From Candidatus Omnitrophota bacterium (GTDB lineage: Bacteria; Omnitrophota; Gorgyraeia; Zapsychrales; Zapsychraceae), in NCBI GenBank assembly GCA_050250375.1, contig JBFWOS010000001.1, positions 1,022,361-1,086,360 of the forward strand: 64,000 bases of DNA. Reading direction: 5' to 3'. Below are positions 3,562 to 25,569 of this stretch, piece by piece. The first letter of the stretch is position 1; each line of letters begins with the position of its first letter. The notes under the pieces are model-generated. The model made no database searches and was not told the DNA's origin. It saw nothing but the letters and a program-made list of their open reading frames with translations. Position numbers and translations under genes: made by a program.

Positions 3562-4436
3562 CGGTTCAGCTCCAGGAATATTTCTTCCAGGTTCAGGTCT
3601 TCGACGTCGACCCTGGCGTTATAATCTTTTTCCAGTTTGATTTTAATATGTTCACTAAATCCCCTGACCGAGACGATGGCCTCATGGGTTGATGATTCAC
3701 AATGGAGAAACCCTTCCACATTAAACTGGTCCGGTAAATTTTTTTGGGTGACGATTCTCAGGCGTTTGACCTCGTCCTTCAGCTGGTCCAGCTCGCCGAC
3801 GAACGTGATCGCGCCGTCTTTAAGCAGGGCCACCCGGTCCGCCACCCTCTCCACATCCGATGTGATATGTGTTGAAAAGAAAACGGTGCATTCTCTTTCC
3901 GAAACGATTTTCAAAATCGTCCTGAGGAATTGCCTTCTCGCCGCCGGGTCAAGGCTGGCGACCGGCTCATCCAGCACCAGCAGTTCCGGTTCATGCCCGA
4001 GGGCCAGGATGATCGCCACTTTCTGCGCCTGGCCTTCCGACAAAAGTCCGTATTTGTCCTTCGTCTCGATGCCCCATTCCCCGATGAGTTGTTTCACCAG
4101 CTCGCGGTTCCAGTGTTTATAAAAAGAGGCGGTGTAGTCGATCAGCTGACTGACGGTTAACCACGGATAAACCCGGTCGCTTTGAGGGACATACCCGAGT
4201 TTCTCCTTGGTCTCTTCTTTAAATTCCCACGGGTTGTCACCCAGCACGGAAATAGTCCCGGAGGAAACCTTCATCAGGCCCAGGATACTTTTGATCAGGG
4301 TTGTCTTACCGGCACCGTTCGTGCCCAGCAATCCGAAGACCGAACCGCGAGGGATTTCCAGAGACAAATTGTTAAGGACCTGTTTATCCTTGTAACCTTT
4401 CGTGATGCCGTTCAACGCTATAACCGGGTTATCCAT
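3558..4436 (-). CDS. ABC transporter ATP-binding protein
   Basis: Walker A GLLGTNGAGKTT, signature LSEGQAQKV and Walker B LLVLDEP are present. The start is reset to MDNPVIALNG (ATG 4436..4434), which has a strong SD (GGAAGGAGA) 7 nt upstream. The 12-codon N-terminal extension in the ORF track is rejected. Confidence 0.9.
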   Translation of the reverse strand: MDNPVIALNGITKGYKDKQVLNNLSLEIPRGSVFGLLGTNGAGKTTLIKSILGLMKVSSGTISVLGDNPWEFKEETKEKLGYVPQSDRVYPWLTVSQLIDYTASFYKHWNRELVKQLIGEWGIETKDKYGLLSEGQAQKVAIILALGHEPELLVLDEPVASLDPAARRQFLRTILKIVSERECTVFFSTHITSDVERVADRVALLKDGAITFVGELDQLKDEVKRLRIVTQKNLPDQFNVEGFLHCESSTHEAIVSVRGFSEHIKIKLEKDYNARVDVEDLNLEEIFLELNR

Positions 4437-6413: not shown

Positions 6414-9400
6414 TTATCCCATCATGGCTTGAATTTTTATCTTTGATTCCTGCAGCAAACTGTAAAAACACGGGACCAGAAAAAGTGTGATCAACGTGCC
6501 GAAGACCAGTCCCCAGGCCAGGGCGAGCATCATTTCCGCCAGCATCGCATCGTATCCGGCCATCCCGTACGCCGTCGGCAAGACCCCGGCCACGGTTGTC
6601 ACCGTCGTTAAGACAACGGCCCGCAGACGGGTTTTCGCGATATCGGCGATCTGCCTGATAACCTCACCTTTGGTTTTTGCCGAGAACTCACTGTCCAGTT
6701 TCGCGAGCATGATAATCGAATCGTTGATGACGACCCCGGCCAGCCCCAGCGCCCCGATGGCCGCGTAAAATCCGAACAAAACTTTCCCGTGCAGCCAGAA
6801 CGCCAGGATGACACCGACCATCCCGAAGGGAATCGACAGCATGATGATCACCGGCCTCATCAATGAATTATAAAGAACGGCCAGGATCGCAAAGATCAGC
6901 AGGATGACCATAATAATCGCCATACGAAACCCGCCCTGCGCCTCACGCGTGTCAAAGACTTCCCCGGTAAAAGAAAGTGTCGTGGACGGCTGTGACTTTG
7001 TGACCTGCGGGAACACCTTCGCCTCCAGTTCATCGGCAATCTCCAGGGGCGTGAACTTTTTGACCGCCTTGATATCGGCGTATACGGCCGTTGTGCGTTT
7101 ACCTTCCCGCCGGGAGATCGAATTCGGCGTCTGCGTATTTTCGACATTGACCAGGTCCCTTAACGGAACAAGATAATTCCGCTGGTTCTCAACCGGGATG
7201 TCCAGGATTGATTCCAGGTCCCTCTTCGACTCATCTTTCACGGTTAACCGGACATCCACATCTTCATCGCCTTTGGGAAATTCATAAAGGACCGAACCCT
7301 CCAGGGCCGAACGGAAGGTCGTTGTGATATCGGCCGGATTGATGTCGAGCCGTTTGACTTTTTCCCGTTTAAAATCAATTTTGTGTTCAGCGACCTTGAT
7401 CGGCTCTTCGATCTCGACGTTCATCAGCTTCTCGTTCGCTTTCATGAGTTCAGAGAGTTTTTGGGCGGCCGAATCCCGCAGGGCGTCATCATTTTCCTGG
7501 ATCAGAACTTCTATGGCGCTTCCGCTGTCCTGCCCCCAGCGGCTTTTCTGGATGACGAGTTTGTTGAGGCCTTCAATGGACTCGATCTGCGGTTTCCACA
7601 CGCCGATCAGCTGGTCGGCGGATTTTTTCCGTTTCTCCTTGGGAACAATCTCGACAATCATGCTGAAACGGTTCTCCTGCACCTCGCCTCCCCGCCGGCT
7701 CCGGGCAATCTCCGTACGGTATCCGACCACTTCCTTTCCGATGTAGGGGATTAACAGGTCTTCAATTTTTTTGGTCAGATTGGCGGTATCAATGCGGTCG
7801 GCCTGTTTATCCGCAAAGCCGGAAATAACAATGTCCCGTGTCTCCTCGTTGGGAAACATCACGAATTTCATCTGGCTGGTCATGATCCATCCGGACGCTA
7901 AAAGGATAAAAATGAAAAAGGCAAAGACAAAATATTTGTAAGCCAGAACTTTGTGCAGCAGCGCCCCGTATTGATCTTCAACATTTTCAAACCAATGGCG
8001 TTTGACCGGCTTTTCTTTGTTTTTATGGCCGTTCATCAGCTTGCCGATCTTGGGCACTTCAAAATGCATGTGTCCCGGTAAAACCAGCAGGGATTCAAAG
8101 AGGCTCGCCCCCAACATCAGAAAAATAATAGGCGGGATATATTTATTGATCTGCCCGTACCGTCCCTGGAAATAAAACAGCGGGATAAACGCGATGCAGG
8201 TCGTAATGATGCTGGCCAATATGGGAAGAAAGACCTGGGTTGTTCCCTCGATGGCGGCCTCACGGGAATTCATCCCCTTCGAACGCATCCGGCCCACATT
8301 TTCCGCCACCACAATCGCGTCATCGACAACGATCCCCATCACGATAATCACGGCGGCCAGGGTCGTATTGTTAATCGTATACCCCATGAGCCAGCCGCTG
8401 ATCAGGGTAAAACAGATGGTAAAGGGAATCCCCATCGCGACCCAGAAGCCGGATCTCTTGTTGAGAAACAAAAATAAGGCGAGCAGGATCAGGAAAAAAC
8501 CCACGGCCCCGTTCATGGAAATGATCGACAGCCGGTTGCGGACGTCAATGGATTCATCGTCCAGCAGCACAATATCAATCGGGACATCTTTGAGATGGTT
8601 TTCCTTATATTCTTCAACCAGCCGGGTAACCGAATCCAGCGCCTGGAGAATCCCGGCGGAACTGTTTTTAACAACATTGAACATGACGCATTCGTGGCCG
8701 TTGACCTTGATGATCTCCTTTTCCATGTCAAAACCCGGGACAATCTCAGCGATCTCGGAAAGCGGAATGGCCTGGCCTTCAAACCCGGCCTGGATAAATA
8801 ACCGGTTCAGTTTTTCCGGCGTATCCAGCTGGGCGTTGATCGTTACCTTGGGTTCATTCTTGATTTCGATATGCCCGGCGGGCTGGCGGGCGTGATTGTT
8901 GGTGACTTCCCGTTTAACCTGGCTGAGCGGGATGGCGTAGCGGATCAATTTCTCGGGATCAACCTTGATCTGGATCTCTTCCTGAAAGTAAGCGGACTTA
9001 TCAACGCTGTTTACTTCTTTCAGGTTTACCAGCTGGTTTTCCAGTGAATTGGCATATTTCTGCAGGAGCTGCCTTTCCTGCGTGCTTAGAAGGTGGGACC
9101 CTGTATAGATGAGCGCGATATCGAGGATCGCTTTTTTGGAAGTCTCAAATACCCGGACGGTGGGGTCATCCCGCACGTCTTCCGGAAGGTCAACGTCGGA
9201 AACGGCATTGCGGATCTCGGTGATCGCTTCGTCTTTTCGGGGAAAATCCTGTTCCAGTTCAACGGTGATGGATGTGCTGCCCTGGCTGGCCGAGCTGATC
9301 ACCCGGTAAACCCCGTCTATTCCCTCAACGGCCTCTTCGATTTCTTTTGTGACGAAATGTTCGACTTCTTCGGCTGTGGCCCCTGGATAATTCGCGGAAA

Positions 9401-9545
9401 TGCGCACACGGTCAAAGGTGACATCCGGCAGTTCTTCCTTTTTGATATTCTGCCAGCTGACGACCCCGCCTATGAGGATGGAAAGGAAAATAAGGTTGGT
9501 CAATAAGTGACGGTCAACAAAATAAGTGATTACGGCTCGTAACAT
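6414..9545 (-). CDS. RND efflux transporter permease (AcrB/HAE1 family)
   Basis: 1043 aa with 12-TM architecture and two large periplasmic loops. The conserved TM4 motif GIVVDDAIVVAENV matches AcrB GLLVDDAIVVVENV. Confidence 0.9.
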   Translation of the reverse strand: MLRAVITYFVDRHLLTNLIFLSILIGGVVSWQNIKKEELPDVTFDRVRISANYPGATAEEVEHFVTKEIEEAVEGIDGVYRVISSASQGSTSITVELEQDFPRKDEAITEIRNAVSDVDLPEDVRDDPTVRVFETSKKAILDIALIYTGSHLLSTQERQLLQKYANSLENQLVNLKEVNSVDKSAYFQEEIQIKVDPEKLIRYAIPLSQVKREVTNNHARQPAGHIEIKNEPKVTINAQLDTPEKLNRLFIQAGFEGQAIPLSEIAEIVPGFDMEKEIIKVNGHECVMFNVVKNSSAGILQALDSVTRLVEEYKENHLKDVPIDIVLLDDESIDVRNRLSIISMNGAVGFFLILLALFLFLNKRSGFWVAMGIPFTICFTLISGWLMGYTINNTTLAAVIIVMGIVVDDAIVVAENVGRMRSKGMNSREAAIEGTTQVFLPILASIITTCIAFIPLFYFQGRYGQINKYIPPIIFLMLGASLFESLLVLPGHMHFEVPKIGKLMNGHKNKEKPVKRHWFENVEDQYGALLHKVLAYKYFVFAFFIFILLASGWIMTSQMKFVMFPNEETRDIVISGFADKQADRIDTANLTKKIEDLLIPYIGKEVVGYRTEIARSRRGGEVQENRFSMIVEIVPKEKRKKSADQLIGVWKPQIESIEGLNKLVIQKSRWGQDSGSAIEVLIQENDDALRDSAAQKLSELMKANEKLMNVEIEEPIKVAEHKIDFKREKVKRLDINPADITTTFRSALEGSVLYEFPKGDEDVDVRLTVKDESKRDLESILDIPVENQRNYLVPLRDLVNVENTQTPNSISRREGKRTTAVYADIKAVKKFTPLEIADELEAKVFPQVTKSQPSTTLSFTGEVFDTREAQGGFRMAIIMVILLIFAILAVLYNSLMRPVIIMLSIPFGMVGVILAFWLHGKVLFGFYAAIGALGLAGVVINDSIIMLAKLDSEFSAKTKGEVIRQIADIAKTRLRAVVLTTVTTVAGVLPTAYGMAGYDAMLAEMMLALAWGLVFGTLITLFLVPCFYSLLQESKIKIQAMMG

Positions 9546-9906
9546 AAAGTTATTATAACGGTCATTATTAATAATTTCTTTAAAACTTTAGACAATTTGA
9601 GTTTAAAAAAGTTCCCGGAAAATTTTTTATTTTTAAAATTGACCGGGGAACGTGTTTTCATAGGCCGGCGCGGTGATTTAAACGGAAAAACCCGCCCACT
9701 CCTGTTGAGGAATGAACGGGTTTTTTGATTTCTTCTCCCGATCAGAAGAAATTGGTTGCGGCCCGCCCTGAATTACAAGATTCAGGGCGAGGTCTCGCCC
9801 GTTATTTAATTCCGAACGGGCGGAGGGCCAGATTTGTCCGCCCCCATTATTGATGGGGCGAGATCTCGTCCGGCTGATAGCCGGACGGAAACTAACGGCC
9901 TTCAGG

Positions 9907-10971
9907 TTATGGGGCGGAAGCGGTGTCTTCTCTGGAAACCGAATTGATATAGTCCGCCAAGTCATGCACGCGGACATACCAAAGCTTGCCTTTTTTATGC
10001 GCTTTCAGCTGGCCCCGGTTGATCAAATTGCGCAAATAGTCCTGAGAATAATCATAGACTCGTGCAAGCTCCCGCAGAGGCAATACCGCCTCTTGACTTA
10101 AATTGGTCAACCGTCCCTCTTTGAGGCGATTAACAGTTTCTTTCAGTAGTCCGGAGATCATTTCGACAAACGGCTCAAATTCCTCTTTTTTAATTAATTT
10201 GCTGACATCTGAAACGTTGACCGTCTTGCCTTTCTCAAGGGACTTATGAATATTTTCAAAACAATCGTCCGCCCTTTCAAGACAATCATAATATTGATCG
10301 CGCTCTTTTTTTGAGATCCCCTTGATGGCAACGTTGATCAATCCCTGCCCGATAAGAATATAAGACAGTAAAATACGTCCCACTCTTCCATTTCCATCAC
10401 GAAAGGGGTGGATTGTTTCAAACCATATATGGGTGGTAGCCGCAAGTATCACTTCATCAAAACTACGTTTCTTGAGCGACTCATTGAACCACTTGATAAA
10501 AAGCTGCATGGCCGGGCGGACATAATGGACGTCAACGGGCTCGAAACTCGCTTGAGCGACCTGAATATTGGTCTTGCGGAAATCCCCAATTTCACCGTTG
10601 TACGTTCCCATGGCTTTTTCATAGCGCATCAAAAGCGTGTGGATCTGTTTGATGTCCGCCATACGCAACTCAAACTCGTTCTCTTTAAGCTGGTTATTGG
10701 CGTATTCGTACATCGCGCTGGCCGCTTCAAAATAGCCCAAAATGGCTGCGGCTTTTTGTTTGTCCGTACGCTTGTTATTTTCCAGAACATCCATGAGATC
10801 CTGACGGTTAGCAAAAACACCCTCGATAGCGATAGAGTTACGGATTTCATCCTTAAACAGGGAATACCATTCCGCATTGGTTACGTTAATGAGATTTCCG
10901 AACCTTTCACGCAGTTGCTGGATTTGCTCTTTTAACCCTGCTTCATAATTTTTCCGAACTTTCCGAACCAT
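9907..10971 (-). CDS. Fic/Fido-domain protein (class II, intramolecular inhibitory motif) with C-terminal HTH
   Basis: Canonical Fic active-site motif HPFRDGNGRVGR. An N-terminal inhibitory-helix motif SIAIEG ([S/T]xxxE[G/N]) is present. A C-terminal helix-turn-helix-like segment is also present (LRELARVYDYSQDYLRNLINRGQLKAHKKGKLWYV). Confidence 0.85.
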   Translation of the reverse strand: MVRKVRKNYEAGLKEQIQQLRERFGNLINVTNAEWYSLFKDEIRNSIAIEGVFANRQDLMDVLENNKRTDKQKAAAILGYFEAASAMYEYANNQLKENEFELRMADIKQIHTLLMRYEKAMGTYNGEIGDFRKTNIQVAQASFEPVDVHYVRPAMQLFIKWFNESLKKRSFDEVILAATTHIWFETIHPFRDGNGRVGRILLSYILIGQGLINVAIKGISKKERDQYYDCLERADDCFENIHKSLEKGKTVNVSDVSKLIKKEEFEPFVEMISGLLKETVNRLKEGRLTNLSQEAVLPLRELARVYDYSQDYLRNLINRGQLKAHKKGKLWYVRVHDLADYINSVSREDTASAP

Positions 10972-11890: not shown

Positions 11891-13162
11891 CTAATAAATC
11901 TTTCCCCACTTTGATCCAGCATAGACAGCCTTTTTGCCAAGCTCTTCTTCAATCCGCAGGAGTTCATTATATTTACACAAACGGTCCGTCCTTGACAAAG
12001 AACCGGTCTTGATCTGGCCGACTCCCGTGGCCACTGCGATATGCGCGATGGTTGTGTCTTCGGTTTCACCGGACCGGTGAGAAATGATTGAAGTGTACTT
12101 ATTATCCTTGGCCAGGCTGATCGCGTCAAGTGTTTCTGACAATGACCCGATCTGGTTGACCTTGATCAGGATTGAATTCGCCGCCTTTTCGTCGATGCCT
12201 TTCTTGAGCCGCTTGACGTTGGTAACAAAAAAATCGTCGCCGACCAGCTGGACACTGCCGCCGATCTTTTTGGTCATCGCCTTCCAGCCGTCCCAGTCAT
12301 TTTCGTCGAGGCCGTCTTCAATCGAAATCAGCGGCGATGTCTTGAGCATCTTGGCGTATACATCAATCATCTCGGCAACGGACAGTTTCTTTCCGTTGTA
12401 ACCGTATTTTTTATCTTTATAAAATTCACTGGAGGCCGCGTCAAGCGCGATGCAGATATCTTTTTTCGGTTTATAACCGGCTTTCTCGACCGCTTCAAGG
12501 ATAACCGCGATCCCTTCCTCATTGCTCTTTAGATTTGGAGCGAAACCGCCTTCATCCCCGACAGAGGTGGATAACTTGCGGTCATGCAGAATTTTCTTTA
12601 AGGTGTGAAAGACTTCACAGGCCATACGGATAGCTTCGGAAAACGTCTTCGCGCCGACCGGAGCGATCATGAATTCCTGGACATCCAGATTGTTGTCCGC
12701 GTGCGCACCGCCGTTGATAATATTCATTAACGGGACCGGAAGGATATTGGCTTCTTTTCCGCCTAGAAACTTATAAAGCGGTTTGCCTTCTTCTTTGGCC
12801 GCGGCCTGGGCCACCGCCATGGACACGCCTAAAATCGCGTTGGCGCCCAGTTTGCCCTTATTTTCCGTGCCGTCCAGTTTGATCAGTTTTTTATCAATCT
12901 TTTTAAAATCCGGTTCAAGACCAACCACCATATCCGCGATGGCCTTGTTGACATTGGCGACCGCTTTGGAAACGCCTTTGCCCATATATTTTGTTTTGTC
13001 GCCATCCCGTAATTCAATCGCCTCATGCTCACCGGTCGAAGCGCCGGATGGAACAGCCGCACGGCCCATCACCCCTGATTTGAGGATAACATCAACCTCA
13101 ACCGTCGGGTTCCCGCGGGAATCGATGATCTGCCGGCCTTTGATTTTCACTATTTTTGACAT
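11891..13162 (-). CDS. eno: Enolase (phosphopyruvate hydratase)
   Basis: [25 protein letters not shown]..., with catalytic and metal-binding motifs conserved throughout. Start set at 13162 with SD AGGAAACAGG. The 18-codon N-terminal extension is rejected. Confidence 0.96.
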
Positions 13163-13381
13163 AACCTGTTTCCTTATAATTGATTTAATTCCTGAAATAA
13201 ATCGTTTAGAACGCACAATCTATCATAGTTCCAAAACAAAGTCAAGCCCCTGCTGGATGATCCATGTTATTATGTCAAATAAATATAGATGAAAAGCAAT
13301 CGCAAGCTTTACAGGTGAAAATCATTTAATATATGATATACTTAGTTTGTTTAATATTAATAAAAAGATGAGGAGCGACCC

Positions 13382-16300
13382 TTGATCAATAAAATCATCA
13401 AATTCTTTAAAATCTATTGGATCAACCTTCTTTTATCTATTTGCATCATTAGTGTTGTAATTGGCATTGCCGTGTTTACCTGGTTTTGTATCGAAGGATT
13501 TTCCCATATGGAAGGCTTCAGCAAACGACAGGCCGCCGGGCAGATGGCCTTGCTGCTGCCGATGTTCATTATTGTGCATCTCGTTACTTTGCCGATCATG
13601 CTGGGTGCCCAATTCTTTATGCTTCATGGCGGCGGACTGGCTAAAATCCTGGGCGGTTCAGAATCCAGTAAATCCAAATCAAAAGTTCATTGGGATGAAG
13701 TCATCGGCATGGAAATGGCCAAACAGGATTCCTGGGAGATCGTTGAATTTTTAAGGAATAAAAAGAAACTCGCGGTGATCGGCGGGACAAACATGAAAGG
13801 GGCCTTGATGTTCGGCCCTCCGGGATGCGGAAAGACTTATCTGGCCAAGGCCATCGCGACCGAATCCCATTTACCGTTTCTCTCTACTGTCGGCTCAGAA
13901 TTTGTCACCATGCTCCAGGGGATGGGCGCCATGCGTATGAAATCAATGTTTAAAAAAGCCCGTAAACTGGCCAAGGTCGAGGGCGGCTGTATTATTTTTA
14001 TAGACGAAATTGACTCCTTTGCGCGTCCGCGTTCCGAGATTGAAACCGGCGGCGGAGCCACCACCAGTAATAACGCCACCATTAATCAATTTTTGACTGA
14101 GCTGGACGGCATGAAGAAAAAAGATGATAATATTTTTGTCCTGGCTGCCACCAATGTCGATGAATCGAAACTGGATCCGGCCGTTGTTCGTTCCGGACGG
14201 TTCGACCGGAAAATTCATATCGACAAACCCACCACCAGGGAACGCAAGGCCTTATTAAAATTTTATCTGGCAAAAGTTACTTATGATCAGAAAATTAACG
14301 TCGATGAAATCGCCGAACGTCTTCACGGATTTACACCTGCCGATGTTAACAGCCTGATTAAAGAAGCCGGCGCTATCGCTTTACGCAGCAACGCCAACCT
14401 TATAGAAACAAATCATTTTGAAAATGCTATTTCGCGCATGATGACGTCCAAAGAAAAGTCGCGCAGCAGTTCAACAATACAGCCCAAAGGCAAAGTGCGC
14501 TTCGACGATATAATCGGCATTGAAGAAGCAAAACAGCATGCCAAAGAGCTGGTCAATACGCTTAAAGACCGTCACCTGATGGAAAAAATTGGTGATAAAG
14601 CAACCCGCTGTTCCCTTCTTTTAGGACCATCCGGCTCAGGTAAGTCTTATTTGGCCAAGGCCATCGCGACAGAGGCCGATGTTCCGTTTTTAACTGTCAT
14701 GGGCAGTGAATTTATTGACCAGTTTATGAACCAGGGCCCGATAAAGATGCGTGAATTTTTCTCCGAGGCCCGTATGCTCGCTAAAGCTGAAGATGCCTGC
14801 CTGGTTTTTATTGATGAAATTGATGCCTTCGCCCGGAATCGGGAAAAAATGTTCGGTTATATGCAGAACCCTACGCTCGACCAATTTATCAGGGAATTGG
14901 ATGATCTGCGCCACAACAACATTAATATCATCGTTCTGGCGGCGACCAACCTAGCAGAAGAAGACTTAGACCAGGCGATATTAAAAATCGGCCGTTTTGA
15001 TCATAAAATTATCCTTGAATTACCGCGGGCCAAACAAAGAGAAGAAATTCTGCAGTACTTTTTGAAAAAAGAAAAGAAGACCGACGATATCGATTTAAAA
15101 TTATTGGCCAATAAAACACCCTCCTTTTCTCCGGCGGACTTAGAAAGCATGGTCAAAACCGCCAGTTTAAGTGCCTTACGGAATAAACGGGAAATGATCC
15201 ACATGTCGGACTTAAATTCGGCTTTAGTCGAGATTCAGGAAGATGTCAATAAACGCGGCGACATCAGCATGGCCAATACCAAGGTCAACATCCCCTGGAA
15301 TGAGGTCATCGGGATGGATGAAACCAAAAAGAACGCCTGGGAAATCGTTGAACTCTTAAAAGACCGCCGCAAACTTAAAGTGGTCGGCGGTAAGATTATC
15401 AAAGGGCTTCTGATGATTGGCCCTCCGGGTTGCGGTAAAACTTATCTGGCCAAGGCCATCGCGACAGAAGCTGGTTATCCATTTCTCAGCGTCGTCGGCA
15501 GTGAATTTGTGGACAAGTACGTCGGTGAAGGCGCCCGTAAGATCCGCGACCTCTTTGCTGCGGCACGCAGTCTGGCCAAAGCGGAAGGCGGATGCATTGT
15601 CTTTATTGATGAAATCGACGCCTTTATCAAACCGCGCACCAATGAGATGAACGGGAATACGAATTCGGAAAATGCCACGATTAACCAGTTTCTTGCCGAA
15701 CTCGACGGACTTGGACGGGCCGAAGACGGAAACGTCATCATCCTGGCCGCGACGAATATGCCTCCGGAAAGCCTGGACCCGGCGGTCATGCGTTCGGGAC
15801 GATTTGACAGAAAACTGGAAATTGTCAAACCGTCAGCCAAGGACCGTGAAGAACTCCTTAATTTTTATTTAACTAAAGTCGAAACAGACGGCGCGATCGA
15901 TGTAAAACTTTTATCTGAAAAGACAAAATGGTTTTCCGCCGCCGATATTAATAACATGGTCCGCGAGGCCGGAATCTTTGCCTTGCGTGAAAATAGAGAA
16001 AAGTTGTCCATGGATGACCTTAATAAAGGGATGAAACGGGTCATGGATTCGATCGAGAATATGGGAGAAGACAAAATCCTCGGAGACAAGGTAAATGTCA
16101 AATGGGAAGAAGTCATCGGTATGCCTGACGCCAAAGAAGAAGCGTTGGAAATCGTTAAAATGCTGAAAGACCGCAATATTGTTAAAGCCATCGGCGGCAA
16201 GATCGTCAAAGGGGTTGTTCTCTTCGGACCTCCGGGATGCGGAAAAACATATCTCGCCAAAGCCATGGCCACCGAGGCGGGCTTCCCTTTTATCTCTAAA

Positions 16301-17482
16301 GTCGGCAGCGAATTTGTCACGATGTGGGTCGGCGAAGGCGGAAAAAAGATGCGGGATATGTTCAAAGAAGCCCGCGCCTTGGCAAAAACTGAAGGCGGGT
16401 GTATCATCTTCATCGATGAAATAGATGCCTTTGCCAGACCCCGCGGATCCAACCAAAACAGCAGCAGCAACTCGGAAAACGCCACGATCAACCAATTCCT
16501 CACAGAAATGGATGGATTGAAAAACGAAAGCAACAATATCATGATCCTGGCGGCAACCAACGCGCGTGAGAACCAAATCGACCCTGCGGTTATGCGCGCA
16601 GGCCGCATTGAACGCAAAATTTACATCTCCCTGCCGACCCTGGAAGAACGTAAAGAACTGTTCAAGTTCTATTTCAGCCGGGTCAGCATCGCGGACGATG
16701 TAAGCCCGGACCGCTGGGCCCGTATCGCGGTGGGCACTTCTCCGTCGGACATCGACAGCATCGTGCGTGAAGGCGGTCTATTAGCGTTACGCGGCAAACG
16801 AGAATCAATTACCCACAAAGACTTAATGGAAGGTTATGATCGAATCACATTAGGCTCAGTGTCCCGGGAGAAATACAACAAGAAATCAATTATGAAAACA
16901 GCTTATCACGAATCCGGTCATGCAATTCTAACTTACCTTGTTCATCCTTCGAGTGAGGTGATCAAGGCTACGATTAAACCCCGCAAGGGTTCACTGGGCA
17001 TGATTCAAAACCGTCCGATTGAAGAACTCGCGCTGAATTCACCGAACAAAGAACAGTGGCTTTCCGAAATACAAATAATGCTGGCCGGGTACGTCGCCGA
17101 GAAACTCACCTTCGGCACAACCGCCTCCGGAGTTGGCGGCGGGCCGGGCAGTGATTTTCATCGGGCCATGAGCGTGGCCAATTATATGGTCCGCAGCCTT
17201 GGTATGGGGGCTTCCGGGCTGATCGGTGACTTTACCGCCATGGAAGAAGATGCTCTATCGGAAAGGACCAAAGTAATTCTCGAAAACGATGTCCAGGACA
17301 TCCTCCAGAGCTGTTTGAAAAAAACCACCGAAATCCTGACCGAATATAAGGCCGTCCTCGAATATTTTGCGCAGGAATTAATGGAAAAGGGCGATCTGGA
17401 ATATGATGACGTCCAGGACATCTTTAATAAATTTAAACTAAAGCCGGCCGCCGTCCGCCCTTCGACCATTGAGGAAGTTTAA
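13382..17482 (+). CDS. FtsH-like membrane AAA+ metalloprotease with four tandem AAA+ modules and one M41 peptidase domain
   Basis: TTG start with SD GAGGAG 7 nt upstream. Two TM helices at aa ~14-38 and ~55-80 with no periplasmic domain between them. Four FtsH-type units, each with an xxW/F[DE][DE]V/IIGM motif, Walker A, Walker B and SRH:
- aa ~102-370: Walker A GPPGCGKT.
- aa ~372-635: Walker A GPSGSGKS.
- aa ~637-905: Walker A GPPGCGKT.
- aa ~906-1160: Walker A GPPGCGKT.
Walker B is FIDEID in all four. The C-terminal M41 domain has HESGH zinc-binding, a downstream AGYVAEK, and a GSDFHRAMSVANYMV motif aligning to FtsH. Confidence 0.9.
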   Translation: MINKIIKFFKIYWINLLLSICIISVVIGIAVFTWFCIEGFSHMEGFSKRQAAGQMALLLPMFIIVHLVTLPIMLGAQFFMLHGGGLAKILGGSESSKSKSKVHWDEVIGMEMAKQDSWEIVEFLRNKKKLAVIGGTNMKGALMFGPPGCGKTYLAKAIATESHLPFLSTVGSEFVTMLQGMGAMRMKSMFKKARKLAKVEGGCIIFIDEIDSFARPRSEIETGGGATTSNNATINQFLTELDGMKKKDDNIFVLAATNVDESKLDPAVVRSGRFDRKIHIDKPTTRERKALLKFYLAKVTYDQKINVDEIAERLHGFTPADVNSLIKEAGAIALRSNANLIETNHFENAISRMMTSKEKSRSSSTIQPKGKVRFDDIIGIEEAKQHAKELVNTLKDRHLMEKIGDKATRCSLLLGPSGSGKSYLAKAIATEADVPFLTVMGSEFIDQFMNQGPIKMREFFSEARMLAKAEDACLVFIDEIDAFARNREKMFGYMQNPTLDQFIRELDDLRHNNINIIVLAATNLAEEDLDQAILKIGRFDHKIILELPRAKQREEILQYFLKKEKKTDDIDLKLLANKTPSFSPADLESMVKTASLSALRNKREMIHMSDLNSALVEIQEDVNKRGDISMANTKVNIPWNEVIGMDETKKNAWEIVELLKDRRKLKVVGGKIIKGLLMIGPPGCGKTYLAKAIATEAGYPFLSVVGSEFVDKYVGEGARKIRDLFAAARSLAKAEGGCIVFIDEIDAFIKPRTNEMNGNTNSENATINQFLAELDGLGRAEDGNVIILAATNMPPESLDPAVMRSGRFDRKLEIVKPSAKDREELLNFYLTKVETDGAIDVKLLSEKTKWFSAADINNMVREAGIFALRENREKLSMDDLNKGMKRVMDSIENMGEDKILGDKVNVKWEEVIGMPDAKEEALEIVKMLKDRNIVKAIGGKIVKGVVLFGPPGCGKTYLAKAMATEAGFPFISKVGSEFVTMWVGEGGKKMRDMFKEARALAKTEGGCIIFIDEIDAFARPRGSNQNSSSNSENATINQFLTEMDGLKNESNNIMILAATNARENQIDPAVMRAGRIERKIYISLPTLEERKELFKFYFSRVSIADDVSPDRWARIAVGTSPSDIDSIVREGGLLALRGKRESITHKDLMEGYDRITLGSVSREKYNKKSIMKTAYHESGHAILTYLVHPSSEVIKATIKPRKGSLGMIQNRPIEELALNSPNKEQWLSEIQIMLAGYVAEKLTFGTTASGVGGGPGSDFHRAMSVANYMVRSLGMGASGLIGDFTAMEEDALSERTKVILENDVQDILQSCLKKTTEILTEYKAVLEYFAQELMEKGDLEYDDVQDIFNKFKLKPAAVRPSTIEEV

Positions 17483-18561
17483 TGCCCCGGAAAATTCACG
17501 CATTATTCCTCATTGTCAGTCTAGGGAGTGTATTGTATATATCCGGATGCGCGAAAAAAGAAACTGTTGTTGAAGCCCCTACAACACCCGCTCATACCAA
17601 ACTCAGCGAACTCCTCGAAAAGGAATTCAAAATTCACGCCATTACCCGGGCTTTACCAAACACCCTTTGGATTTATATCCCGCTGGAAAAAACATTTTTT
17701 GAAGTTTCTTCCACTGACAAAGGACCGCAAAAGTCGTCCAACGCAACAAAGAGTTTAAACCTGCTTTATCTGGACGGTCAATTTGACGGAAAATACTTTA
17801 ATATAGAGTATGATGTCGGGGAATCAAAGAATTATTCCGATGATAAGGGCATCCAATCCAAGTACTCGGAGGAGTACAGCCGGATCAGCCGCACAATCCC
17901 GACGGCCATCCATACGGCCTATTCGGATATTGAACGCAAGGTCGGCAGCCATGACTACATCGAAAAAATTGCAGGCGACATCGACTTTCAGGATGAGCAC
18001 AAAAACACGACCCATAAGGCCCTGGTTCAATCCAATGTCCTGCAGGAACAAAAGGTTCCTGATTTCTTTGTCGTGGTTATCGCCGATATCGAAAAAGGCA
18101 TCGAATCCCGCTCATTGTTTTATTTACAGGATCTCCGCCGGGCCCACGTTGACCCGAACTTTATGGAAGAGTATGCCAAACGGGTCATCACCGATCAGCC
18201 CATCGGTCATTCGGTCATTATTGGCGATAAAACCGGCCAGTATGTTGACTATCATGATGTGACCTGGAATGAATTTCTGATGAAACAAATCCTAAACCGG
18301 ATCCGATTTCAATATCAGATGAGTTCCCATAAACCTGAATCCGGCGATTTCGATATTCTAAAGGACCTGGCCAATCAGGTCCTTCGGGCATACCCTCACC
18401 GGGATTATCAGGGCGTGAATTTTCTCAACCTTGAAACCAAAAAAGAATCCAGACTAAATGCGGATGCAATTGATGCCTATCAAGATTTTGACAGCAAAGA
18501 TCCAGGACGGATTCGTAATATCAAAGTAAATCTGGACGCCCCGGCCGAAAACGGCATTTAA
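17482..18561 (+). CDS. Lipoprotein of unknown function, translationally coupled to the tetra-AAA FtsH
   Basis: The ATG overlaps the upstream TAA (TAATG). Signal peptide with lipobox ISGC (MPRKIHALFLIVSLGSVLYISGC). 359 aa with no recognisable catalytic motif. Confidence 0.6.
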   Translation: MPRKIHALFLIVSLGSVLYISGCAKKETVVEAPTTPAHTKLSELLEKEFKIHAITRALPNTLWIYIPLEKTFFEVSSTDKGPQKSSNATKSLNLLYLDGQFDGKYFNIEYDVGESKNYSDDKGIQSKYSEEYSRISRTIPTAIHTAYSDIERKVGSHDYIEKIAGDIDFQDEHKNTTHKALVQSNVLQEQKVPDFFVVVIADIEKGIESRSLFYLQDLRRAHVDPNFMEEYAKRVITDQPIGHSVIIGDKTGQYVDYHDVTWNEFLMKQILNRIRFQYQMSSHKPESGDFDILKDLANQVLRAYPHRDYQGVNFLNLETKKESRLNADAIDAYQDFDSKDPGRIRNIKVNLDAPAENGI

Positions 18562-18608: not shown

Positions 18609-19220
18609 CTATTTCTCGATAATCTCAACCCGGCGGGCGCTGATCACTTTCAGGCATCCTTTTTCGTGCAGCGCGATGGCTTGTTTGAAAATCTTGTATT
18701 CGACTTTGTGGATTTTTTCGGTGAGAGACTCCAGCGTTTCATCATTGGCCACTTTAACCGTTTCCTGCAGGATGATCGGCCCGTTGTCCATCTTCTCGTT
18801 GACATAATGGACCGTAACCCCGGTCTGTTTGACCCCGTACGTAAACGCGTCTTTAATTCCGTTCGCCCCTTTAAAAGACGGCAATAAAGACGGATGGATA
18901 TTGATGATCCGGTTGGTATATTCCTTGATAAAATACGGTGTAAATATCACCATGTACCCGGCCGTGACAATAAAATCAATATTGGCCTGTTTGAGGTGGA
19001 TAACGACATCCCGTTCAAAACTCTGCGGGTTGGTATAATCTTTCGGATTGAGATGGAGGGTTTCAAGGCCGGCTTCCACGGCGAGTTTTAGCCCGCCGGA
19101 TTTGGGTTTGTTGGAAAATACCATGGCCAACTTGGACGTAATTTCCCCTTTGTTGACCGCCTCGATAATGGCTTTAAGATTGGTTCCTGCTCCTGATACA
19201 AAAACGGCAAATCTTTTCAT
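18609..19220 (-). CDS. purN: Phosphoribosylglycinamide formyltransferase
   Basis: 203 aa with MKRFAVFVSGAGTNL at the N-terminus, the INIHPSLLP motif, and a formyl-transferase fold pattern. Confidence 0.9.
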   Translation of the reverse strand: MKRFAVFVSGAGTNLKAIIEAVNKGEITSKLAMVFSNKPKSGGLKLAVEAGLETLHLNPKDYTNPQSFERDVVIHLKQANIDFIVTAGYMVIFTPYFIKEYTNRIINIHPSLLPSFKGANGIKDAFTYGVKQTGVTVHYVNEKMDNGPIILQETVKVANDETLESLTEKIHKVEYKIFKQAIALHEKGCLKVISARRVEIIEK

Positions 19221-19298
19221 TGAGTTTCACATTCGATCAGTAATTGGTCCGTTAGGCTAAAACTATTCTTACTAAGTATGCCACGTTCTTAAGAAATT

Positions 19299-20882
19299 TC
19301 AATCTTTTGTTGCCTTTATCATTTCCAGCTGACCAGCGATCTCTTTCGCTTTTTCGGTCTGGCCGCTCTCTTCATATTGCTCGATCAACCGGCTGTAAAC
19401 GTACTCTAAATTTCCTTTATACGAACCTTCAAGGATACCTACTTCCTTAACATTGCGATATTGGGCCAGGGCCTCTTCATATTTCCCCTGGTCGGCCAGG
19501 GCCTTGCCCAGACCGATCAGGGCCTTTGTATTATAGGGTTCATAATTCAGGGTCTGGCGGTAATGGTACTCCGCCTCTTCAAATTTTCCGGCATACCCAT
19601 AACATACCGCCAGGGAATTACGCACCCGGTGATTGCCAGGGTTATGTTCCAGGGACCGCTTAAACATGGCGATCTGGTTGGTCGCGTAGACATTCTGCTG
19701 AAGCAGGGTCAAAAATAAAAACAGGATATACCCGCCGACAAGGATTTGTTTGATCGACGGCTTTAAACTGCCGGGCCGTGAAAGAATGTTTTGAGTCACC
19801 GTCACCAGAAGGACGATCGCACCGATAACCGGCAGGTATAAAAAATGGTCGCTGGTCGAAATCCTTCCGCCGGGCGCGCGGATCGGGATGATCTGGGCGA
19901 CTGTGCCGAAATTAAGCACAATCCAGGATATAAAAAACAACAATGCCGCCGGTATCTTGCGGCGGTTCAGGAAAATCGCGGTAAAGACACCCGCCCACAC
20001 ACACAAAGAAAGCATCAATACCGGGTCCCCGGGGCGGACAAACAAAAGTGTCGTATGGTCATAATAAAAGTCAACCGGAAGCAGGATCTGCCGGGTGAAA
20101 TACAGGCAGGTTTTAAGAAATGTGCCTACCCCCAGCCATACTTCCAGCGGCGTATCCCAGGCGGTGACCCGGGTAATCCCCAGGAGGCGGCGGATGATAA
20201 AATAAAATACCATCAAAGCCATATACGGCCACAACAAACCGTACGACCGGCCTTTGTCTTTGTCCCGCATAAAAAAAAGATACCCGGCCAGGACAAACGG
20301 CAGCATGACCGCTGATTCTTTGGACAAAAGCGCCAGGATAAAACAAACCACCGATATATAATAGAAAGGATTCTTTTTATCCTGTGTTTCAAATTTGAGA
20401 AAACTGTAGAACGAAGACAGGAAAAAGAAGGAACACAGCAGGATGGAACGTCCCGGGATGTTGGACACAGCCTCCCAGTGCACGGGATGAATCACAAAGA
20501 TAAACGCGCTGAAAAAACCGGTTCTTTTATCTTTCATCAGCGACGTCACGATCCAAAAAACAAACAATGCATTACCGATGTGTAGAAATAAATTCGTCAA
20601 ATTGTAAAAAAAAGATTTCAGGGCGAACAGGTGAAATTCCGCCATAAAAGACACTAAAACCAGCGGCCGGTAATAAGATCCTTCCATAAAAAATGATGTC
20701 GTGAAAATCTCGCCGATACGGCTGATGTGTTTGATCCGGGGGTTGTTGACGATGGAGACCAGGTCGTCCATGGTCTTGAACTGGGTGGGCAAAACAACGG
20801 CATACCCGGCCAATCCGGCCAAAGCCAGGCACAGGATTATATTGCGGTTACGACTCAGTATTTTGGATAAGAATGAATTCAT
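19299..20882 (-). CDS. Polytopic membrane protein with C-terminal TPR repeats (TMTC/DUF1736-like)
   Basis: ~400 aa with more than 10 TM helices, followed by TPR-like repeats (AVCYGYAGKFEEAEYHYRQTLNYEPYNTKALIGLGKALADQGKYEEALAQY). Confidence 0.55.
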   Translation of the reverse strand: MNSFLSKILSRNRNIILCLALAGLAGYAVVLPTQFKTMDDLVSIVNNPRIKHISRIGEIFTTSFFMEGSYYRPLVLVSFMAEFHLFALKSFFYNLTNLFLHIGNALFVFWIVTSLMKDKRTGFFSAFIFVIHPVHWEAVSNIPGRSILLCSFFFLSSFYSFLKFETQDKKNPFYYISVVCFILALLSKESAVMLPFVLAGYLFFMRDKDKGRSYGLLWPYMALMVFYFIIRRLLGITRVTAWDTPLEVWLGVGTFLKTCLYFTRQILLPVDFYYDHTTLLFVRPGDPVLMLSLCVWAGVFTAIFLNRRKIPAALLFFISWIVLNFGTVAQIIPIRAPGGRISTSDHFLYLPVIGAIVLLVTVTQNILSRPGSLKPSIKQILVGGYILFLFLTLLQQNVYATNQIAMFKRSLEHNPGNHRVRNSLAVCYGYAGKFEEAEYHYRQTLNYEPYNTKALIGLGKALADQGKYEEALAQYRNVKEVGILEGSYKGNLEYVYSRLIEQYEESGQTEKAKEIAGQLEMIKATKD

Positions 20883-24430: not shown

Positions 24431-24625
24431 TCATTTCTTTAAAGAATAAAGAACCAATAATCCGCCGACAGCGATGATAAACCCGATGGAACCCCGGACG
24501 ATCGTTGCCAGGTCGTCAAACCAGACCAGGATCAATGTCACTCCGACCAGAACGGCAAAACATCCGGCCAAAAACTTGATATACGTCTTGTCCTGCAATT
24601 TGTCTTCTGCCTTTTTCATAATCAT
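24431..24625 (-). CDS. 64-aa two-TM small membrane protein
   Basis: Hydrophobic translation. Its start overlaps the LpxL-like stop (ATGA coupling). Confidence 0.4.
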   Translation of the reverse strand: MIMKKAEDKLQDKTYIKFLAGCFAVLVGVTLILVWFDDLATIVRGSIGFIIAVGGLLVLYSLKK

Positions 24626-25569
24626 CCTGCCTTTTTCTGTTTACGTGTGTTATGAGCTGTCGGCCGGCTTTTCCAGCGCCGGTGCATCCAGCCCCATTCA
24701 TGCGGATACCGGCGCACATACTGTTCGATGATCTGCGTGATCTTGCAAATATTGACTTGCAGCATCTCTTCGTTGTCTACATTGTCCGATATGGTCAGCT
24801 CCGGTTCAACAATTATTTTATGCATCCCGTTTTCCTGACGAATGATAAACATCAGGATAATCGGCGCCCCGGTGCGTTTGGACAATATGACCGGGCCGGT
24901 GGCCGTCGCAGCTTTCTGGCCGAAAAAATCCACGAACACCGAACCGGCGCTGCCCGCGTTCTGGTCCAGCGGAACAAACAGCACTTCGTTCTTGCGCAGC
25001 GCCTCCAGGGATTGTGAAACACATTGCTGGCGGGGCACGGCATAAATGGTATTCAAACCCGCGTCTGTTCTTTTCTGTAAAAGATATTCTTCGATCTTTT
25101 CATCCCTGGCCGGACGGATGATGGAATTGACCTTGTAACCCCGCAGAGCGCAAAAAAACATCATCAACGGAAAATTCCCGAAATGGGCGGTGACCGCGAT
25201 CACCCCCTTCCCCTTCTTGAGGGCCTCATCAAGGTGTTCTTTGCCGTCGATATAAACCGTTTGGGTCACTTTTTCCGGATTTGCCAGATAATAGGACATC
25301 TCGATCATGGCCAGCCCGAAATTGCGGAAACATTTTTTGGTAATCGCCGTTAATTCTTCCTTGGTCTTGTCCTTGCCGAACGCGATCTCCAGGCTTTCGG
25401 CGGCGATGCGCCGATGCCGGATCGTAAACTGATACCCGATGCTGATCGCAACGATCGCCAGACCGCGCACCATCCAATACGGAAGGTATTTCAGCAGCCA
25501 CGAAAAAAAATAAAGCCCCTGCCGGGCCATGGCCCGCTGGAACGTTTTAACATATTTATTCTTGCTCAT
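24622..25569 (-). CDS. Lipid A biosynthesis late acyltransferase (LpxL/HtrB family, LPLAT superfamily)
   Basis: N-terminal TM anchor, AHFGNFP acyltransferase motif region, and length/order typical of LpxL. Confidence 0.75.
   Translation of the reverse strand: MSKNKYVKTFQRAMARQGLYFFSWLLKYLPYWMVRGLAIVAISIGYQFTIRHRRIAAESLEIAFGKDKTKEELTAITKKCFRNFGLAMIEMSYYLANPEKVTQTVYIDGKEHLDEALKKGKGVIAVTAHFGNFPLMMFFCALRGYKVNSIIRPARDEKIEEYLLQKRTDAGLNTIYAVPRQQCVSQSLEALRKNEVLFVPLDQNAGSAGSVFVDFFGQKAATATGPVILSKRTGAPIILMFIIRQENGMHKIIVEPELTISDNVDNEEMLQVNICKITQIIEQYVRRYPHEWGWMHRRWKSRPTAHNTRKQKKAG

Follow-up and report, generated by a model that had tools for sequence, protein, structure and literature searches.

A lipoprotein family of Omnitrophota encoded directly behind a short-loop FtsH

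Results

The ftsH-lipoprotein gene pair

In the stretch of 64,000 nucleotides analysed here (the window; contig JBFWOS010000001.1 of a Candidatus Omnitrophota bacterium), a gene for an FtsH-like protease with four AAA modules is followed on the same strand by a gene that encodes a real, previously undescribed lipoprotein, found directly behind FtsH in 19/19 of the Omnitrophota loci examined. The two genes form an isolated unit between a divergent enolase gene (11891..13216, - strand) and a convergent purN gene (18609..19220, - strand), and the features of the pair are collected in Table 1. The original prediction, made from this DNA alone, had described an open reading frame (ORF) of 359 aa starting on the last base of the upstream stop codon, and this is what the sequence contains: the ftsH stop TAA occupies 17480-17482 (ending '...gaa gtt TAA'), and the A at 17482 doubles as the first base of the lipoprotein ATG. 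A Shine-Dalgarno-like GAGGA lies ~8 nt 5' of this start, within the 3' end of the FtsH coding sequence. The pair therefore has what defines a two-gene operon, namely a common strand, an overlapping or abutting stop and start, and conservation of both in orthologous loci (see below), and FtsH and the lipoprotein are probably co-translated. The best sigma-70-like match of a consensus scan is a possible promoter of this operon. An independent promoter, which the original prediction had named along with a different expression pattern as a refutation, was looked for 5' of the lipoprotein start, and the same scan gave nothing promoter-like over the final ~900 nt of ftsH.

Table 1 Features of the ftsH-lipoprotein unit in the window.
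Feature	Position	Strand	Basis and remarks
Best sigma-70-like promoter match, TTTACA-18-TATGAT	13308..13337	+	Consensus scan only; upstream of the FtsH start
FtsH-like protease gene, four tandem AAA and M41 peptidase (HESGH)	13382..17482	+	Pfam/NCBIfam
FtsH N-terminal membrane region: transmembrane helix 1 (TM1), ~15-aa loop, TM2	13382..13630	+	Alignment of 15 FtsH N-termini
TAATG stop/start overlap, ftsH to lipoprotein gene	17480..17484	+	Sequence
Lipoprotein gene	17482..18561	+	ORF and translation; ATG start, 359 aa
Signal peptide and lipobox I-S-G-C	17482..17550	+	Sequence; Cys23 predicted lipidation site, predicted signal peptidase II (SPase II) cleavage before Cys23
Short tether AKKETVVEAPTT, ~12 residues, from lipidated Cys to first helix	17551..17586	+	DSSP of models
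Most conserved core, residues ~192-278	18055..18315	+	Alignments A1 and A3; predicted local distance difference test (pLDDT) >90 across the stretch
Short motif P-G-R-I-R-N-I-K-V in the C-terminal tail	18505..18534	+	Alignment A1; sub-clade feature

The N-terminus of the product, MPRKIHALFLIVSLGSVLYISGC, has a positively charged n-region and a hydrophobic h-region followed by I-S-G-C23 (layout MPRK-IHALFLIVSLGSVLY-ISG-C23), an exact fit to the lipobox consensus [LVI][ASTVI][GAS]C. The window protein thus carries the sequence marks of a bacterial lipoprotein, that is, of a substrate of Lgt and SPase II (charged n-region, h-region and lipobox), and the clean lipobox noted at the outset is borne out. 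According to DSSP of the AlphaFold2 (AF2) model, the first helix begins at residue 36 in the window protein; in the family member P0036 it starts from residue 38, the invariant lipobox Cys being residue 28 (DSSP of its model and alignment). Such a tether of 9-12 residues would hold the globular domain close to its anchoring membrane.

A lipoprotein family found in Omnitrophota

A first homologue search with the window protein returned 36 close homologues, and screening 1.84 billion cluster representatives with a profile extended the family to 613 members at E<=1e-3 (429 at E<=1e-10), mostly 280-360 aa long. In a profile search that returned names, all family members with a named taxon belonged to Omnitrophota/Omnitrophica except one labelled just 'bacterium'. 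The database entry identical to the window protein is annotated as 'hypothetical protein, Candidatus Omnitrophota bacterium', and the window ORF is the founding member of an uncharacterised, Omnitrophota-restricted lipoprotein family. Four of the loci described below (L006, L009, L011 and L014) come from metagenome-assembled genomes (MAGs) titled 'uncultured Planctomycetales bacterium', yet they carry a block of enolase, short-loop ftsH, lipoprotein and purN of the Omnitrophota type; either these taxonomic labels are loose, or the family reaches slightly past Omnitrophota.

Ten residues (Y65, P67, F195, D217, E230, R234, D249, F265, R273 and Y304) were invariant in 27 or 74 aligned members (alignments A1 and A3, respectively), and conserved columns were spread along the whole alignment, with the highest density at residues 192-278. 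With 36 homologues, 613 representatives and conserved columns throughout, the window ORF is not a chance ORF. In alignments A2 and A3 the lipobox Cys was invariant, and in A1 it was nearly so. A strict regular expression for a [GAS]-C lipobox preceded by a hydrophobic stretch matched 228 of the 234 N-terminally complete members, and five of the six exceptions were recognised by eye. Because the lipobox is kept in ~99% of these members, lipoprotein status is a property of the family and not an accident of the window sequence, and the search for an SPase II site suggested in the original prediction came out positive. Among the 228 regex-positive members, the residue at position -1 to the lipobox Cys was G (176), S (32) or A (20), and the residue at position +2 was variable (S 74, A 33, G 26, T 21 and D 11, among others).

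The conserved core contains the motifs VPDFFVVVIADI-KGIE, YLQDLRRA, EEY-KR, IIGDK-G and TW-EFL-KQI--RI and seven of the invariant residues (F195, D217, E230, R234, D249, F265 and R273), and is a candidate interaction or ligand site. The C-terminal tail, in contrast to this confidently modelled stretch, was poorly modelled (pLDDT <50 at residues 340-352). Its short motif, which in the general form G-[RK]-x-[LIV]-x-x-[LIV]-[KR]-[FVY] was present in 37/263 family members, may be a short linear docking motif.

Two members depart from the usual layout. At L019 (6008..8005; 665 aa in total), a divergent member is joined through its C-terminus to ~300 aa of tetratricopeptide repeats (TPR) and has lost the GD from IIGDK-G; its gene and that of FtsH share 35 nt. 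Besides this fusion, no extra domain was found in the longer family members. In the homologue at L018 (6300..7583; 427 aa), ~95 residues are inserted behind the first helix.

Linkage to FtsH

We examined 19 loci, comprising the window and 18 others, of which 12 were reached from the lipoprotein side (L001, L003 and L005-L014; Omnitrophota MAGs, some labelled 'uncultured Planctomycetales') and six from the FtsH side. The lipoprotein-side search used an alignment of 11 closer sequences; the full 27-sequence alignment had no sufficiently conserved stretch. An FtsH-like gene (AAA, M41 and HExxH) adjoined the lipoprotein gene upstream on the same strand in 12/12 lipoprotein-side loci. At the FtsH-side loci, chosen from FtsH homologues of differing architecture, the downstream gene was without a Pfam match in 6/6. 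Five of these genes matched the A1 lipoprotein profile (L015, E 1e-89; L016, E 5e-73; L017, E 2e-26; L018, E 5e-65; L019, E 2.5e-18), and P0237 was judged from the gene table only (a 339-aa gene with no Pfam match and a 4-nt overlap with the FtsH gene). Overall, a family member lay directly 3' of a short-loop FtsH, on the same strand, in 18/18 other loci, so that the co-conservation test, which the original prediction had set as its own possible refutation, supported the pairing.

The spacing was tight. In 16 of the 18 loci that were tabulated (the window and 17 others), the gap between the two genes, measured from the stop codon of ftsH, was -53 to +7 nt, with the same 1-nt overlap as in the window at L001 and L003, and an overlapping or near-abutting stop and start was kept down to ~25% protein identity. 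The 219-nt spacer at L012 (6740..6958) opens with short direct repeats (acaagatacaagaaacaagatacaagaaac).

A single AAA module was present in the partner FtsH of 9/18 other loci (10/18 of those tabulated), two modules in that of L010 and three in those of L005, L016 and L018; the window FtsH has four, that of L015 has six, and those of L017 and L019 have an AAA-M41-AAA-M41 arrangement. The pairing is thus independent of FtsH architecture. The coupling to a tetra-AAA FtsH that was originally proposed holds as regards the pairing itself, but not as regards the tetra-AAA form, to which it is not specific. Neither the C-terminal tail motif nor the length of the lipoprotein tracked the AAA copy number consistently.

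The usual flanks are enolase upstream, and purN and a major facilitator superfamily (MFS) transporter gene downstream. The linkage was kept where both flanks differ (smpB and a radical SAM gene at L017, ABC-transporter genes at L019) and where the upstream side differs (L016 and L018). The taxonomic range of the lipoprotein family is also that of the short-loop FtsH, the taxon-named matches of both being all Omnitrophota.

The short-loop FtsH

The upstream protein has four PF00004 AAA domains, four AAA lids and one PF01434 Peptidase_M41 domain with HESGH, and matched the FtsH model TIGR01241 with 1155 bits (cutoff 600). With two hydrophobic segments at the N-terminus, it has the layout of the FtsH family, in which N-terminal TM helices are followed by one or more AAA modules and an M41 domain with HEXXH. 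The loop between TM1 and TM2 is ~15 residues long in 15 aligned orthologues instead of the ~75 residues of a periplasmic domain, and no FtsH_ext Pfam match was obtained even at E<=10, which agrees with the earlier statement that this FtsH-like protein lacks the periplasmic domain. In canonical FtsH, the periplasmic region of ~75 residues is the place where HflKC docks (PMC12067869). The positive-inside charge distribution would place the short loop in the periplasm. Its motif, (L/M)E-F-(S/T)(R/K)(R/K)Q---Q, is better conserved than the flanking TM helices, and the loop is a candidate docking site for the lipoprotein.

The Omnitrophota FtsH proteins form a series with 1, 2, 3, 4 and 6 AAA modules at ~560, ~830, ~1100, ~1367 and 1861 aa, next to AAA-M41-AAA-M41 forms of ~1010-1025 aa. 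Given 273 homologues at E<=1e-100 and this graded series, the tetra-AAA FtsH of the window is one step in a phylum-wide expansion and not a one-off. Its four AAA modules share 39-53% mutual identity, and all four have Walker A and DEID Walker B motifs. A canonical aromatic-hydrophobic-Gly pore loop is present in modules 3 and 4 only (K-Y-V-G and M-W-V-G); the corresponding positions of modules 1 and 2 read M-L-Q-G and Q-F-M-N-Q-G, and the Walker A of module 2 is GPSGSGKS.

Among the duplicated AAA-M41 units (L017, 4001..7054; L019, 3001..6042), two HExxH sites were found in L019 and one in L017, where the first peptidase domain is probably inactive. The public call of the 6-AAA FtsH at L015 (1861 aa) begins inside the periplasmic-loop motif (~3875..4000); an in-frame upstream ATG adds 'MPNKIGILFKHYRTKILISTFLIVSFLCIVLMLFF...' and restores TM1, and the public gene call is accordingly truncated. 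A role in a defence system was also considered for the pair and rejected: the FtsH scored 377.5 bits against the model of the anti-phage ATPase IteA, below the cutoff of 510, and the housekeeping context and the lack of a PADLOC match for the lipoprotein further weaken this idea.

Sequence and structure comparisons of the lipoprotein

No match above threshold was obtained for the lipoprotein in Pfam and NCBIfam, searched with the single protein and with all 27 A1 members, or in PADLOC, PHROGs and a profile search of PDB sequences, in keeping with the initial impression of a protein with no recognisable enzymatic motif. The best family match was GerPC (E 0.04-0.08), well short of its cutoff.

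Two AF2 models were compared, one of the window protein (27-sequence alignment; pLDDT 84.6, predicted template modelling score (pTM) 0.77) and one of a minimal 295-aa member with 23-27% identity (74-sequence alignment; pLDDT 86.1, pTM 0.83). Both models have the same order of elements, consisting of a helix, a small sheet with a very long beta-hairpin (17-24 residues per strand), a helix, a three-stranded unit, four helices and a terminal hairpin. Foldseek returned no neighbour at E<=1e-3 for either model in the PDB or for the window model in BFVD, and the fold is apparently new.

Three candidate relationships were rejected. The window model alone gave repeated weak Foldseek matches to the nucleotidyltransferase fold (cGAS/Mab21/MiD51; best E 0.039, TM-score 0.19), which did not recur with the second, better model and were treated as noise; the catalytic motif G[GS]...[DE]h[DE] is absent as well, there being no GS motif and E204 not being conserved in A1. 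A split-off FtsH periplasmic domain (FtsH_ext, PF06480) found no support in hhalign of A3 against residues 1-130 of E. coli FtsH (probability 2.4%) or in Pfam. Descent from HflK/HflC (SPFH, Band 7) was rejected likewise, with an hhalign probability of 0.1% for each and no Band-7 Pfam match; SPFH chains were also absent from the Foldseek top 50 of both models.

Neighbouring genes

In most related loci, purN is followed by the MFS transporter gene and then by a gene for a TPR/PMT_2-like membrane protein; in the window (18609..20882, - strand), the MFS gene is missing and purN is directly followed by the TPR/PMT_2-like gene. One lineage (L001) has a ParE/PhD toxin-antitoxin pair (9856..10446) as an insertion that separates purN from the MFS gene. 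At L018, FtsH is preceded by a giant glucan-synthase-like gene that encodes 2982 residues. On the other side of the pair in the window, a Fic/DOC and HTH_17 gene (9907..10971, - strand) lies between an AcrB-family transporter gene (6414..9545) and DivIC/enolase, with nothing comparable at the same position in the other loci. The window also contains a lipid A acyltransferase gene (24622..25569).

Discussion

On the genomic evidence, we tentatively favour, with a confidence slightly short of even, the reading that the lipoprotein is a dedicated periplasmic accessory subunit of the Omnitrophota FtsH. The SPase II-processed lipoprotein would be made from the same mRNA as FtsH, in a lineage whose FtsH has cut the usual periplasmic domain of ~75 residues to a conserved loop of ~15 residues. 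Its tether of 9-12 residues would hold it near the outer face of the inner membrane, where it would dock on the FtsH hexamer or next to it, the conserved loop being the probable site, and would supply in trans the periplasm-facing functions that are given elsewhere by the built-in domain together with HflK/HflC, namely stabilising or positioning the hexamer, and gating or recruiting membrane and periplasm-exposed clients. The roles first suggested for it, 'adaptor, substrate-delivery factor or substrate', are likewise tentative. That tight coupling is kept to ~25% identity suggests that the two products interact and are synthesised in equimolar amounts. The TPR fusion and the partial loss of the IIGDK-G motif at L019 make us lean towards a binding role over a catalytic one, and the fused variant suggests that the module works by protein-protein contacts rather than catalysis.

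Several observations weigh against an accessory subunit. The gaps between the FtsH and lipoprotein genes widen to 114 and 219 nt in L009 and L012. Asp at position +2 occurs in just 11/228 members, so that under the Lol sorting rules, which are those of E. coli and may not hold in Omnitrophota, most members would go to the outer membrane, from where the short tether would be unable to reach an inner-membrane FtsH. The invariant D217, E230, R234, D249 and R273 might just as well belong to a ligand or catalytic site. The region of enolase, ftsH, lipoprotein, purN and MFS genes is largely syntenic phylum-wide, and the linkage may be partly inherited gene order. In a mirror-tree comparison of 14 loci, the lipoprotein distances correlated with those of the FtsH N-terminus (r = 0.38) and C-terminus (0.34) no better than with those of PurN (0.40), and the test, also run as a partial correlation, gave similar values (0.34-0.40) and did not discriminate.

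The last two observations are those expected if the lipoprotein is an operon passenger, i.e. an envelope protein with a role unrelated to FtsH that is kept beside ftsH by inherited gene order in one phylum, and the E. coli ftsH operon indeed includes the functionally unrelated folP and glmM. We nevertheless consider this rather unlikely: the linkage survives changes of the flanks on both sides or upstream, the overlapping or near-abutting stop and start is kept to ~25% protein identity, and the range of the family coincides with that of the FtsH form without a periplasmic domain. These linkage data apply equally to a lipoprotein that is tied to FtsH function without being a stable subunit, whether as a substrate, as a substrate-like inhibitor, such as YccA in E. 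coli, or as a sensor of the envelope state whose level is set by FtsH. It could also report envelope defects to the protease, as the lipoproteins RcsF and NlpE report stress to inner-membrane partners. With its invariant charged residues, both acidic and basic (IIGDK-G, D217, E230, R234 and R273), a surface loop would suit a ligand sensor, and the organism makes lipid A, to judge from its acyltransferase gene; FtsH is reported to control the synthesis of lipopolysaccharide (LPS) in Proteobacteria (PMC7157816), which we also count in favour of such a tie. On the other hand, a periplasmic lipoprotein without a cytoplasmic tail for FtsH is unlikely to be a classical substrate after export, equimolar translational coupling typifies subunits more than it does regulators or substrates, and no ligand-binding fold was recognised in the Foldseek searches, which makes a loose functional tie of this sort seem unlikely to us.

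A periplasmic enzyme of new fold, for example a cell-wall or lipid hydrolase acting via the invariant carboxylates D217, E230 and D249, appears quite improbable. Invariant Asp, Glu and Arg are packed in a confidently modelled stretch of 60 residues, but no enzyme family was matched by sequence or structure, the weak cGAS/Mab21 matches (E 0.04, TM-score 0.19) did not come back with the second model, no nucleotidyltransferase motif G[GS]...D-x-[DE] was found, and the divergent TPR-fused member does without the GD of IIGDK-G. We would be more surprised still by a far-reaching form of the partnership, a highly improbable one, in which six lipoprotein copies, each via its long modelled beta-hairpin, would form a periplasmic cap or receptor that feeds proteins back across the inner membrane into the one to six AAA rings. 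Such a complex would capture periplasmic or outer-membrane-destined proteins as a bacterial counterpart of retro-translocation of the endoplasmic-reticulum-associated degradation (ERAD) type, with as many AAA rings as the pulling force requires and the lipoprotein as the invariant periplasmic receptor.

If the lipoprotein is an accessory subunit, its nearest functional analogue would be HflK/HflC and its nearest positional analogue the periplasmic domain of FtsH itself, neither of which is related to it by sequence or fold. HflK/HflC are likewise membrane-anchored, mostly periplasmic and dedicated to FtsH; in E. coli they touch FtsH on its periplasmic side and restrict or present its membrane substrates (PMC12067869), which is the role proposed here for the lipoprotein. 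They differ from the lipoprotein in that they are anchored by TM helices and not by lipid, dock on a periplasmic domain that is absent from the Omnitrophota FtsH, and are encoded away from ftsH in E. coli. FtsH_ext sits on the periplasmic face of the hexamer, the place proposed for the lipoprotein in trans, and its loss coincides with the presence of the lipoprotein in Omnitrophota; its ~75 aa compare with ~270-340 aa for the mature lipoprotein, and there is no match in sequence or structure.

Accessory envelope proteins that direct FtsH in response to conditions at the inner membrane's outer face are also found in LapB (YciM) and YejM (LapC), which are reported to steer FtsH to substrates in LPS homeostasis (PMC7157816, PMC7773988). 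Neither is a lipoprotein: LapB, a TPR protein, faces the cytoplasm, and YejM is polytopic in the membrane, with a sulfatase-like domain in the periplasm. Neither matched the family. The lipid-anchored periplasmic proteins LpoA/LpoB, which act on penicillin-binding proteins, and RcsF and NlpE, which act on stress sensors, switch or inform inner-membrane enzymes and are alike in regulatory logic. These are outer-membrane lipoproteins that are encoded apart from their targets, LpoB having a long flexible linker, and they show no similarity to the present family in Pfam or Foldseek. In a literature search, we found no paper linking an Omnitrophota FtsH to a lipoprotein, and none on an FtsH without a periplasmic domain together with such a lipoprotein partner. 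Overall, the kind of arrangement, a protease with a dedicated membrane-anchored accessory protein, is known, and here it would be built from an unrelated, apparently new fold.

To our knowledge, no membrane-anchored AAA protease other than FtsH is universal in bacteria, and the periplasmic domain serves HflKC and other factors as the handle for controlling FtsH. The Omnitrophota FtsH gave up this handle, and every examined locus pairs the 3' end of ftsH with a gene for a lipoprotein of unrecognised fold. Should the link be one of gene order only, what remains is a 'conserved hypothetical' lipoprotein, if a well-documented one. If the two proteins form a complex, Omnitrophota would have found a second, independent solution to the control of FtsH from the periplasmic side, and a function would be assigned to a family of >600 sequence clusters. 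The pair also offers a fixed reference for the expansion of the AAA rings from one to six, with the periplasmic partner constant and the motor changing.

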